From assembly GCF_057098645.1 (NCBI RefSeq), contig NZ_CM169472.1: a DNA stretch of 64,000 nucleotides; one strand, 5' to 3'. Position numbers: made by a program. Positions 37,801-43,800 of this stretch are shown here, piece after piece (position 1 is the first letter of the stretch; each line of letters begins with the position of its first letter).

Positions 37801-40800
37801 GCATCGCCCCGCCAGCGCCAGTATTTAACGGCGAATACGGTGACGCATATCAGGGCGCTCGTGAAGACCTGTCCATCTGGAAACGGCGAGCGCTTGAAGC
37901 TGATGAGCACGTTCGGCGACTGGAGCAAATCAATGACCACATGGTGAAAGAGGCGCAGGGAGAATCACGCATGGGCGAGCCTGTAATACGTGAGCCAGCA
38001 CCGGTAGTGCCTGAAGAAGCAACTCCGGAAAACGTAGAAATGCTCTCTGGCTATGTTTCAACGTACAAATTAACCGATAGCGAGCGCGATATTGCTGCCG
38101 AAATATGGAGCGCCTGCCGCGCCGCCATGCTTCAGTCCGGAAACTTTCGGGAAAACAAGAATTCGTCAACCAATAATTTTCGGGAAATCGCGGAAACGTC
38201 AACCAACTATCCGGCAATTCCTAGTGAGGTGTTGTCCGCAATCCTGAAGGTTGCCAGGATTCGTGCCGATTTCGATGATTTTGACGGTGACAGGCGAGGT
38301 ATCGGTGATTGTCTGGATGAGGCTGAGCAAGAGCTTATCGTTACCATTAACAAATATGCCAGTCAGTTGGCAGCAGAACCTATAGCGCCTAATGACGTTC
38401 GAGAGCAGACAGCCATTCCACAAGTTCCGGTGACTCCGGATGGTTGGATAAGCTGTAGTGAGCGAATGCCGAATACCAAAACAGCCGTTCTTGTTGCCGT
38501 GGAGTTTGACAGGAAAGGTGACTGGCGAATGAAATGGGCTACTTACATCCCGGGGCATCCTGACGCTAATGATGGGTGGATAATTCCTGGTGCGTCGTGG
38601 AAAACGTCACACTGGATGCCGCTACCAGAGCCTCCACTTTGAAAGCGAAGCTTATACATATCTTTTACATCAGCAATCTATTGTTAATCTCCAATCAATG
38701 TTACGTTGTCATCTCACTCATGCTTTGGAGTTAGTGATATGTCTTGTCCAAAATGCGGTTCTGGAAATATTGCAAAAGAAAAAACAATGCGTGGATGGTC
38801 TGGTGATTATGTGTGCTGCGATTGCGGATACAACGACTCTAAAGACGCATTTGGAGAGCGTGGTAAAAACGAGTTTGTCAAAATTAATAAAGAACGCGAA
38901 GGCAACGAAAAAAGCTAATTTATTATTCATATATGAAAACAATGTAACCAATATTCGAATTGAAGAACTGAAAGAACACCAAGCCGCCTGATGGCGGTTT
39001 TTTTATTACCTGATTTGCAGGTTCGATTCCATATTCGGAGATAGCACTCATGCAACACGAACTACAACCTGATTCACTGGTTGATTTGAAATTCATCATG
39101 GCCGATACTGGCTTCGGTAAAACCTTCATCTATGACCGGATTAAGTCCGGAGACCTGCCTAAAGCCAAAGTTATCCACGGGCGAGCAAGATGGTTATATC
39201 GTGACCATTGTGAATTCAAAAATAAGCTCTTAAGCCGCGCCAATGGGTAAAATAGCGGGTAAAATATTTCTCACATCTAAAAAACATCATTCCAATCAAT
39301 CCCCTGCCGCTTCAAGTAGATGTCTGCAGGGGACACCATCCTTGTATTTTCCCTAAAGCCACATAAAAACCGTAAATTAAATTCGAACTAGCAGGCCGAA
39401 TAAGGCACACCAGGAACTCGTGGTTTTATTCATTATGAAGTGGTTTTTACCTGTTCTCTTAGCCAGGTAATAAACGCTTCAATTTTTGGCCACTGCCTGC
39501 CCGGTAATGTGGTGATGTAATAATGCTGATGGCATTTCACCGTCATATCGCCAAACGGCGCGACGAGCTCACCACTGGCAAGCCTTTTTTGTACCAGACG
39601 TTTCCTTCCCATCGCCACCCCAATATGATTCATCGCGGCGATAACGGCTAAATCAGAGCGATCAAAGCCAATTCCAGAAGATGTCGGCAAATTAACCGCA
39701 TAATGTTGCGCCCAACTATGCCATTCATCCGTACCGGAGTCGTTGCTCCATGCCTGTCTGTCATGGAGCAACGTACAGTGACGCAGGTTAATTACCGTGT
39801 TGGTTAAATCATGTCTTTGAGCGTACTCCGGGCTACAAACTGGCAAGATTTCTTCATCCATCAGAAAGTGATGAGCCAATTGCGCTGACGGCGCGTCATC
39901 AAAGTAGATTGCCAAATCGATTCCGGCACGTTGCAAATTGACATTGTCATTACCAGTGAGCACGGTGAGCGAAATAGACGGATATCGGCGTGTAAAGTCA
40001 CCTAATGCGGGCACCAACCAGCATTGGGCGATAGAGGGCCGGGAATACAGAGTTAACGTTCCCGATAACTCCTGATTTTTGATATCCAGAATTTCCTGAT
40101 TCAGGGTATCCAGCGACGATTTTAGCGCCCAATAAACGCGTTTCCCCTCGTGCGTTAATTCCACTTTGCGATGGGAACGGACAAACAACTGAATGCCCAA
40201 TTCTTCTTCCAGCTGATTGATACGGTGACTTACCGCACTGGGGCTCAGCGACAATTCCTCTGCCGCCAGGGCGAAGGACTGATGCCTGGCAGCCACTTCA
40301 AAAGTATGCATTTTTGATAGTTGCCAGCCGTTAAGCAGTCGATTTCTTATTTCACGAAGGGGTTCCATAATCACCTCATTTTTCTCTTAAGTGTAAAAAA
40401 ATAGCGGCAAAATTTCAGCTGTGAGATGAGCTAAAGTGAACCATATCTCAATTCACCTTCATTTTTAGAGGTAAATCACTCCATTGATGCAATTTACCTC
40501 ATGTGAAAGGCAAATTTTATCGTTTGTCAGCCTGCGTTGTTTTTTTGTCCAATATCATCAGGTTAATCACAGGGGAAGGTGAGATATGCACTCTCAAATC
40601 TGGGTTGTGAGCACGCTGCTTATCAGCATCGTGTTAATTGTACTGACCATCGTGAAGTTCAAATTCCACCCGTTTCTGGCGCTGTTGCTGGCCAGCTTCT
40701 TCGTGGGAACGATGATGGGTATGGGACCACTGGATATGGTAAATGCTATTGAAAGTGGAATTGGCGGAACGCTGGGGTTCCTTGCTGCGGTTATCGGCCT

Positions 40801-43800
40801 GGGCACGATACTGGGAAAAATGATGGAAGTATCCGGGGCCGCAGAAAGAATTGGTCTGACACTTCAACGCTGTCGCTGGCTTTCAGCTGATGTCATTATG
40901 GTGCTGGTTGGCCTGATTTGCGGCATCACGCTATTTGTTGAAGTGGGCGTCGTGCTATTGATTCCTCTGGCTTTTTCAATTGCCAAAAAAACCAATACCT
41001 CATTGTTAAAGCTGGCCATTCCGCTATGTACCGCATTGATGGCAGTGCACTGCGTGGTTCCCCCACATCCGGCTGCTTTATATGTTGCCAATAAGCTGGG
41101 CGCAGATATCGGTTCGGTGATCGTCTACGGTTTGCTGGTTGGGCTGATGGCATCACTGATCGGTGGCCCACTTTTCCTTAAATTTCTGGGGCAACGACTG
41201 CCCTTTAAACCTGTACCCACAGAGTTTGCCGATCTCAAAGTTCGCGATGAAAAAACACTACCGTCATTAGGCGCAACGTTATTCACCATACTGCTACCCA
41301 TTGCGCTGATGTTGGTTAAAACGATTGCCGAATTGAATATGGCGCGTGAGAGTGGTTTGTATACCTTGCTTGAGTTTATTGGCAACCCTATCACTGCCAT
41401 GTTTATCGCCGTGTTTGTCGCCTATTATGTGTTGGGTATACGCCAGCATATGAGCATGGGGACGATGCTCACACATACGGAAAATGGCTTCGGTTCTATT
41501 GCTAATATTTTGCTGATTATCGGGGCCGGAGGCGCATTCAACGCCATTTTAAAAAGCAGCAGTCTCGCTGATACGCTGGCAGTTATTCTCTCCAATATGC
41601 ATATGCACCCGATTCTTCTGGCCTGGTTAGTGGCTCTTATTCTGCATGCGGCAGTGGGCTCCGCTACCGTGGCAATGATGGGGGCAACGGCAATTGTTGC
41701 ACCCATGCTGCCGCTGTATCCCGACATCAGCCCGGAAATTATTGCGATTGCTATCGGTTCAGGCGCGATTGGCTGCACTATCGTTACGGACTCGCTTTTC
41801 TGGCTGGTGAAGCAATATTGCGGCGCTACGCTCAATGAAACATTTAAATACTATACGACAGCGACATTTATCGCTTCAGTCGTCGCTCTGGCGGGCACAT
41901 TCCTGCTGTCATTTATCATCTAAGCGCAAAGAGACGTACTATGGAAAACGCTAAAATGAACTCGCTCATCGCCCAGTATCCGTTGGTAAAGGATCTGGTT
42001 GCTCTTAAAGAAACCACCTGGTTTAATCCTGGCACGACCTCATTGGCTGAAGGTTTACCTTATGTTGGCCTGACCGAACAGGATGTTCAGGACGCCCATG
42101 CGCGCTTATCCCGTTTTGCACCCTATCTGGCAAAAGCATTTCCTGAAACTGCTGCCACTGGGGGGATTATTGAATCAGAACTGGTTGCCATTCCGGCTAT
42201 GCAAAAACGGCTGGAAAAGGAATATCAACAACCGATCAGCGGGCAACTGTTACTGAAAAAAGATAGCCATTTGCCCATTTCCGGCTCCATAAAAGCACGC
42301 GGCGGGATTTATGAAGTCCTGGCACACGCAGAAAAACTGGCTCTGGAAGCGGGGTTGCTGACGCTTGATGATGACTACAGCAAACTGCTTTCTCCGGAGT
42401 TTAAACAGTTCTTTAGCCAATACAGCATTGCTGTGGGCTCAACCGGAAATCTGGGGTTATCAATCGGCATTATGAGCGCCCGCATTGGCTTTGAGGTGAC
42501 AGTTCATATGTCTGCTGATGCCCGGGCATGGAAAAAAGCGAAACTGCGCAGCCATGGCGTTACGGTCGTGGAATATGAGCAAGATTATGGTGTTGCCGTC
42601 GAGGAAGGACGTAAAGCAGCGCAGTCTGACCCGAACTGTTTCTTTATTGATGACGAAAATTCCCGCACGTTGTTCCTTGGGTATTCCGTCGCTGGCCAGC
42701 GTCTTAAAGCGCAATTTGCCGAGCAAGGTCGTATTGTCGATGCTGATAACCCTCTGTTTGTCTATCTGCCGTGTGGTGTTGGCGGTGGTCCTGGTGGCGT
42801 CGCATTCGGGCTTAAACTGGCGTTTGGCGATCATGTTCACTGCTTTTTTGCCGAACCAACGCACTCCCCTTGTATGCTGTTAGGCATCCATACAGGGTTA
42901 CACGATCAGATTTCTGTTCAGGATATTGGTATCGACAACCTTACCGCAGCTGATGGCCTTGCAGTTGGTCGCGCATCAGGCTTTGTCGGGCGGGCAATGG
43001 AGCGTCTGCTGGATGGCTTCTATACCCTTAGCGATCAAACCATGTATGACATGCTTGGCTGGCTAGCGCAGGAAGAAGGTATTCGTCTTGAACCTTCGGC
43101 ACTGGCGGGTATGACCGGACCTCAGCGCGTGTGTGCATCAGTAAGTTACCAACAGATGCACGGTTTCAGCGCAGAACAACTGCGTAATGCCACTCATCTG
43201 GTGTGGGCGACGGGAGGCGGAATGGTGCCGGAAGAAGAGATGGAGCAATATCTGGCAAAAGGCCGTTAATAACGTTTCAACGCAGCATCGCAATCCTTTC
43301 CCTGGGTGAGCGATGCTGCCGATGGCGCAGACTTAAGATCCCCGGTCTTACCCGCTATAACCCCCTGCTTTTACCATCACCCAACGCCTTTCGCTGTAAA
43401 CGGCGGTTTCGCAAACCAAACCAAAACCGTAAGTAAGATAAAAGCAATAGCCGCCATACGGAAAATCTCATTTGCAGAAATAGAAAGTGACTGCTGGGTT
43501 ATTTCATTATTAATTTCATTAAGAACTCCTGAAAGCGAACCATAGTATTTATCCATAATTTGTGACGATGAATTAAATACAGGGTTAAATTGATCGATGG
43601 TTGCTGTCAACTGACTATGGTGTAACGATTCGCGTCGCCCCCACAGCGTCATTGTCAACGATGTACCAACTGATCCTGACAAGGTACGAAAAAAATTACT
43701 CATACTCGAGGCATTGGCAAATTTATTATCTGGCAAGCCTGAAAACGAAATCGTTGTTAAGGGTAAAAAGAAACAGGCAACGGCGAATCCCTGAAAAAAC

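Follow-up and report, generated by a model that had tools for sequence, protein, structure and literature searches.

An intact dsdCXA D-serine locus bordering the argW prophage remnant in an Escherichia coli chromosome of apparent O145:H28 type

The D-serine locus of Escherichia coli, dsdC-dsdX-dsdA (dsdCXA), adjoins the tRNA gene argW in a chromosomal region that has been described as hypervariable (PMC8787464; PMC4366372). Kapi1, Sf6, HK620, and KplE1 share an attP and occupy a site flanked by yfdC and dsdC, where int is the yfdC-proximal gene and xis/torI is near dsdC (PMC8787464). Insertion of the csc genes has been ascribed to recombination at the same argW hotspot (PMC4366372; PMC7486766), and where these genes replace dsdC and most of dsdX, the dsd system becomes nonfunctional and D-serine is toxic (PMC7486766). 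The dsdA gene was reported in 1561 of 1591 strains, and its phylogeny follows the core genome (Connolly et al.). The same group reported 26 genomes in which dsdCXA occurs together with the LEE (locus of enterocyte effacement) (Connolly et al. 2015), and a later paper quotes an intact dsdCXA in only 5.7% of LEE-positive isolates. Here we describe the dsdCXA locus found in a stretch of 64,000 nucleotides (hereafter, the window) from contig NZ_CM169472.1 of the NCBI RefSeq assembly GCF_057098645.1. The locus is part of the core chromosome and not cargo of the adjacent element, an argW prophage whose right attachment site it directly borders. It is a complete copy of the canonical chromosomal D-serine locus of E. 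coli and, to judge from its sequence, very probably functional; both the locus and its arrangement were known before.

The analysis addressed the integrity and conservation of the genes, the boundaries set by the att sites, and the match to the lineage, with the annotated dsdC-dsdX-dsdA genes of K-12 MG1655 (b2364 to b2366) as the reference for gene comparison. A six-frame list of open reading frames (ORFs) contains three uninterrupted ones, at positions 39433 to 40374 (minus strand), 40586 to 41923 (plus strand), and 41941 to 43269 (plus strand); dsdC is thus on the minus strand and divergent from dsdX, as expected of dsdCXA. From its ATG, dsdC (39433 to 40368, minus strand) encodes a LysR-type activator of dsdXA of 311 amino acids, equivalent to K-12 b2364, whereas the plus-strand genes dsdX (40586 to 41923) and dsdA (41941 to 43269) encode, respectively, a GntP-family D-serine transporter of 445 amino acids and a pyridoxal phosphate-dependent D-serine ammonia-lyase of 442 amino acids. 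The products match the respective equivalog families: DsdC aligns end to end with the NCBIfam model NF007491 (601 bits; cut-off, 316) and scores 598 bits, well over the cut-off, against TIGR02036; DsdX matches NF007395 over positions 1 to 445 of 445 (940 bits; cut-off, 618); and DsdA matches TIGR02035 end to end (812 bits; cut-off, 368).

All three genes equal their K-12 counterparts in length, and none contains an internal stop. An earlier note on this DNA had described them as full length, which these results bear out, and the frameshift that might have been missed in that reading was looked for in the dsd genes and not found. Relative to K-12, there are 25 nucleotide and 4 amino acid differences in dsdC (T165A, A187D, C196R, and I301T), 19 nucleotide and 3 amino acid differences in dsdX (V101A, I260T, and V262L), and 17 nucleotide and 6 amino acid differences in dsdA. 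The ratios of nonsynonymous to synonymous divergence (dN/dS) from K-12, calculated by the Nei-Gojobori method, point to purifying selection on each of the genes (dsdC, 0.07; dsdX, 0.06; dsdA, 0.21). DsdA aligns over residues 1 to 442 with the structures of E. coli D-serine dehydratase (PDB 3SS7 and 3SS9; E = 1e-297; 6 substitutions) and retains the SGSIKARGG motif with the Schiff-base (pyridoxal phosphate) lysine K118.

On the minus strand, the start region of dsdC reads GAGGTGATTATGGAA. The earlier note had placed the end of the gene at 40374, on a GTG two codons upstream of, and 5' to, the ATG. This GTG is part of the Shine-Dalgarno sequence GAGGTGAT and was rejected as the start codon; because it sits within the ribosome-binding site, the start has been corrected to the ATG at 40368. 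The resulting length of 311 amino acids is that of DsdC in K-12 and in the annotation of identical DNA by the NCBI Prokaryotic Genome Annotation Pipeline (PGAP); in genomes that are 100% identical here, the product is WP_022581663.1. In the divergent control region between dsdC and dsdX (40369 to 40585; 217 bp), 214 of the 217 bases are the same as in K-12, the remainder being 3 substitutions, with no indels.

What is known of these families, together with published phenotypes, suggests how induction, transport, deamination, and growth would proceed. With D-serine as the inducer, DsdC would turn on the divergent dsdXA; DsdX would import D-serine; and DsdA would deaminate it to pyruvate and ammonium. 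Such breakdown would remove a bacteriostatic compound and would supply the cell with carbon and nitrogen. Use of D-serine as a carbon substrate has been described for O145 strains with eae-gamma that belong to sequence types ST32/ST137 (n = 18; PMC7316241).

The border between dsdCXA and the neighboring prophage is defined by a 16-bp core, CTGCAGGGGACACCAT, which is present twice, at 24543 to 24558 and at 39324 to 39339, with 14,781 bp from start to start. The first copy, the attL core, is the 3' end of argW (24483 to 24557, plus strand), a gene for tRNA-Arg(CCU) and the sole tRNA that ARAGORN reports in the window. The second copy of this argW 3' end is the attR core (plus strand; repeat family D4). 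It is followed by a chromosomal spacer of 93 nucleotides (39340 to 39432) and then by the stop codon of dsdC at 39433, in agreement with the earlier statement that the dsd genes begin 94 bp from attR (39433 minus 39339). This spacer is near-identical to the one in K-12 and identical to the one in the O145:H28 strain RM13514, in which argW abuts dsdC. In lineage-mates such as Z1323HEC0422, RM12761, and RM9872, the distance between the left-flank match and the dsd match is precisely the 142 bp that an unoccupied argW site should leave. Among 5426 complete RefSeq genomes of E. coli, the BLAST breakpoints of partial matches to the junction fall at 39324 and at 39338 to 39341, that is, at both edges of the core, which is thereby delimited independently. 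The identity between the argW-dsdC junction of RM13514 and the DNA that follows the second core copy, the 142-bp empty sites, and the core-edge breakpoints show that the repeat marks a genuine attachment site and did not arise by chance. The proposal that dsdCXA is cargo of the island was considered and rejected, as the genes lie outside the att repeats and match those of the lineage-mates with an empty site.

The remaining parts of a KplE1/CPS-53-type integration module are also in place, with an integrase beside argW and TorI at the far end. The intS-type tyrosine integrase at the left island end (24683 to 25885, plus strand; Pfam domains Phage_integrase, Phage_int_M, and Arm-DNA-bind_3) is annotated as intS at this position in related genomes; the listed GTG may be upstream of its actual start. 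At the right end, torI (39050 to 39250, plus strand) encodes an excisionase, or recombination directionality factor, of 66 amino acids (PHROG 66) that is identical in sequence to K-12 TorI (b4501) and is annotated as torI in UTME-3. The torI-attR-dsdC junction is found in one piece in 856 of the 5426 complete genomes. On the other side of the locus, emrY (43377 to 44915, minus strand; 512 amino acids, identical to K-12 EmrY) is the right-hand neighbor that anchors dsdCXA in the core chromosome. The gene order argW ... dsdC dsdX dsdA emrY emrK evgAS agrees with K-12, and its dsdA-emrY-emrK-evgAS part is common to K-12, UTME-3, and RM13514.

Over 3977 bp, the dsd locus is 100% identical to that of approximately 25 O145:H28 genomes, in which PGAP calls dsdC, dsdX, and dsdA all intact. 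The segment from 39324 to 47300 (dsd-emrY-emrK-evgA) is 99.99% identical to RM13514, and the left flank (1 to 24400) is 99.9 to 100% identical to the O145:H28 lineage, with only 27 records at 99% or higher. Since the left flank and the dsd stretch both match O145:H28 at this level, the two flanks and the locus share one history. By its flanks, from which alone the pathotype was deduced, the backbone is that of the O145:H28 lineage of enterohemorrhagic E. coli (EHEC) or a very close one. The LEE, which this lineage carries at selC (PMC3893438), is itself outside the 64-kb window; the window probably comes from the minority genotype that is positive for both LEE and dsdCXA, as the lineage match and the T3SS effector genes of the adjacent island (described below) indirectly suggest. 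The argW site is empty in most of the O145:H28 lineage-mates, and the lineage would seem to have kept the ancestral dsdCXA, with no swap of dsdC and dsdX for cscBKAR.

Three observations count against a functional locus in this strain. The published D-serine phenotype belongs to other isolates of the O145 lineage, not to the source strain; DsdC differs from its K-12 counterpart at four residues; and a scan of positions 39200 to 43450 for consensus sigma-70 promoters returned 0 promoter-like sites versus 6.1 expected, a result that is uninformative for an activator-dependent promoter. The locus could be intact on paper yet silent or impaired, leaving the strain sensitive to D-serine, either because of those four changes from K-12 or through interference from the prophage end, for example if transcription from torI read through attR and entered dsdC at its 3' end. 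The torI and dsdC genes are convergent, and the sole terminator-like hairpin between the two is weak and consists of the att core; terminator-like hairpins in the scanned interval occurred at chance level only. We nevertheless consider a silent locus very unlikely, given that the same allele is present at 100% identity in the approximately 25 O145:H28 genomes and that strains of this lineage use D-serine. Further, the low dN/dS of dsdC argues for continued selection, and K-12, which shares the torI-attR-dsdC layout along with the 856 genomes mentioned above, is D-serine proficient.

It is even less probable that dsdCXA is not ancestral at this site and that it arrived, or was regained, along with the argW island, either as cargo of the mobile element or because a larger argW-dsd segment recombined in from another lineage. 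The hypervariability described for the argW-dsdCXA region would allow for such a history, as would the makeup of the island, a mosaic found whole in 0 of the 5426 complete genomes, none of which covers at least 80% of positions 22000 to 44000 (57% in the best case). However, dsdC is located outside the att-bounded element, the 39324 to 47300 segment is almost the same as in RM13514, where argW directly abuts dsdC, and the core-genome-like phylogeny of dsdA (Connolly et al.) also speaks against import. We therefore favor the view of dsdCXA as an ancestral core locus that is predicted to be functional, which supports the expectation of the earlier note that the strain should tolerate and catabolize D-serine.

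As for the distribution of this locus, 5400 of the 5426 complete genomes match some part of the region from 39300 to 43300, but in only 2717, or about half, does a single place contain at least 80% of this region. The earlier note had presented argW as a hotspot where sucrose genes replace dsdCXA. The hotspot and the replacement are well documented (PMC4366372; PMC7486766), but the extent of the loss was overstated: dsdA stays, and only dsdC and most of dsdX are replaced. Thus, strain Ec-2844 carries cscB, cscK, cscA, and cscR, followed by a 219-nucleotide 3' fragment of dsdX and an intact dsdA.

Taken alone, the locus is of little import, as it combines a textbook dsdCXA with a K-12-type torI-attR-dsdC junction. 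The only mildly unusual point would be the presence of an intact dsdCXA in an apparent attaching and effacing pathogen of the O145:H28 type; among such pathogens, intact copies are reportedly rare. D-serine represses the LEE-encoded type III secretion system (T3SS). Repression of the T3SS by serine has been attributed to the ammonium released by deamination, acting via NtrC/Nac (PMC13012123, 2026). If this model is true, DsdA would turn D-serine into a nontoxic yet strong T3SS-repressing signal in O145:H28 strains. With its dsd genes intact, O145:H28, one of the "big six" Shiga toxin-producing E. coli and a sister to O157:H7, could provide a natural system for telling apart D-serine catabolism and D-serine itself as the driver of virulence repression, and D-serine is suggested as an ingredient of a differential medium for O145. 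No paper in the library that was searched names O145 together with dsdCXA. Tentatively, and with slightly less than even confidence, we propose that the window comes from a LEE-positive attaching and effacing O145:H28 pathogen in whose lineage a functional dsdCXA has become fixed and that carries a T3SS effector cassette on the argW prophage approximately 9 kb from dsdC. Such a lineage would be a stable natural counterexample to the proposed evolutionary incompatibility of LEE and dsdCXA, rather than a transient intermediate.

The island itself (24559 to 39339) is a decayed prophage of 14.8 kb with ends of the KplE1/CPS-53 type (IntS and TorI). It encodes four proteins of the T3SS effector type: NleD-like (25982 to 26680; Peptidase_M91), NleH-like (26911 to 27801; OspG-type kinase), NleC (28619 to 29638; Peptidase_M85), and NleB/SseK (29672 to 30652). 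These are followed by an IS3-family insertion (31312 to 32525) and the lambdoid gam/recT/exo genes (34084 to 35848). Approximately half of the island is ~98% identical to the records of phage 434 and lambda h434 imm21, where these effectors are annotated as well. A direct repeat of 69 nucleotides (71% identity), at 27816 to 27884 and 30747 to 30815, is located just upstream of the minus-strand NleH-like and NleB-like genes and may be a regulatory element common to both of them. The T-arm segment TTGCAGGTTCGATTCC of argW (24528 to 24543) recurs as an exact 16-nucleotide copy at 39015 to 39030, 19 nucleotides upstream of the torI start codon. Together with the core at 39324 to 39339, it looks as if the torI gene had split the 3' half of argW. 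Because the same fragment is found upstream of torI in K-12, this copy is part of the attR/attP arm and not a strain-specific feature.

Elsewhere in the window, an IS3-family element of 1.33 kb (~57724 to 59052) directly follows ypdI and is absent from the same site in UTME-3; it has two ORFs (57770 to 58180 and 58138 to 59043) and a transposase of PHROG 157. In the search with the right flank, O145:H28 genomes were not ranked first; according to local BLAST, this ranking, as well as the many plasmid hits, is due to that insertion rather than to a divergent backbone. The window has an uninterrupted yfdE ORF (50762 to 51946; 394 amino acids from a GTG start), whereas in UTME-3, otherwise 99.9% identical, yfdE (28463 to 29608 in segment coordinates) contains an internal stop and is annotated as a pseudogene. 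In strains RM13514 and RM12581, the yfdC side of argW holds an additional ~62.7 kb, and an integrase directly adjoins the tRNA on its 5' side; Cooper et al. placed the Stx2a prophage of RM13514 (~50 kb) adjacent to argW (PMC3893438). Together with the effector island on the dsdC side in the window, this DNA indicates that both sides of argW have been used by different elements within one lineage.

Among the known systems, the uropathogenic and neonatal meningitis E. coli (CFT073 and K1 strains) reportedly resemble the window in having an intact three-gene dsdCXA locus with the same predicted function. K1 strains reportedly carry two dsdCXA copies (Moritz and Welch 2006, as cited in PMC4366372, PMC7486766, and PMC8787464); the window contains one copy only. 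The csc-substituted type (that of O157:H7 EDL933, observed here in Ec-2844) occupies the same position, between argW-associated mobile DNA and emrY, and also retains dsdA, but there cscB-cscK-cscA-cscR take the place of dsdC and of all but the last 219 nucleotides of dsdX, whereas the window is free of csc genes.

The closest counterparts are found in K-12 and in EHEC O145:H28. The CPS-53/KplE1 end of K-12 MG1655 has the same gene order, orientation, gene lengths, and neighbors (torI, the argW fragment, dsdC, dsdX, dsdA, and emrY): there, torI is followed by pawZ, a 15-bp argW fragment that forms the end of CPS-53, and then by dsdC. The nucleotide identity is 97.3 to 98.7%, with 13 amino acid substitutions in total across DsdC, DsdX, and DsdA and none in TorI or EmrY. 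The integrated elements differ, the one in K-12 being 10.2 kb long with the yfdGHI O-antigen glucosylation genes and the one in the window being 14.8 kb long with nleB/nleC/nleH/nleD-type genes, the IS3-family insertion, and lambdoid gam/recT/exo. EHEC O145:H28 strains such as RM13514, RM13516, and RM12581 show 100% identity over the 3977 bp from the att core to past dsdA, with the same protein accessions, but most genomes of this lineage have an empty argW site with argW abutting dsdC, whereas in the window the dsdC side of argW is taken up by the 14.8-kb IntS/TorI remnant.

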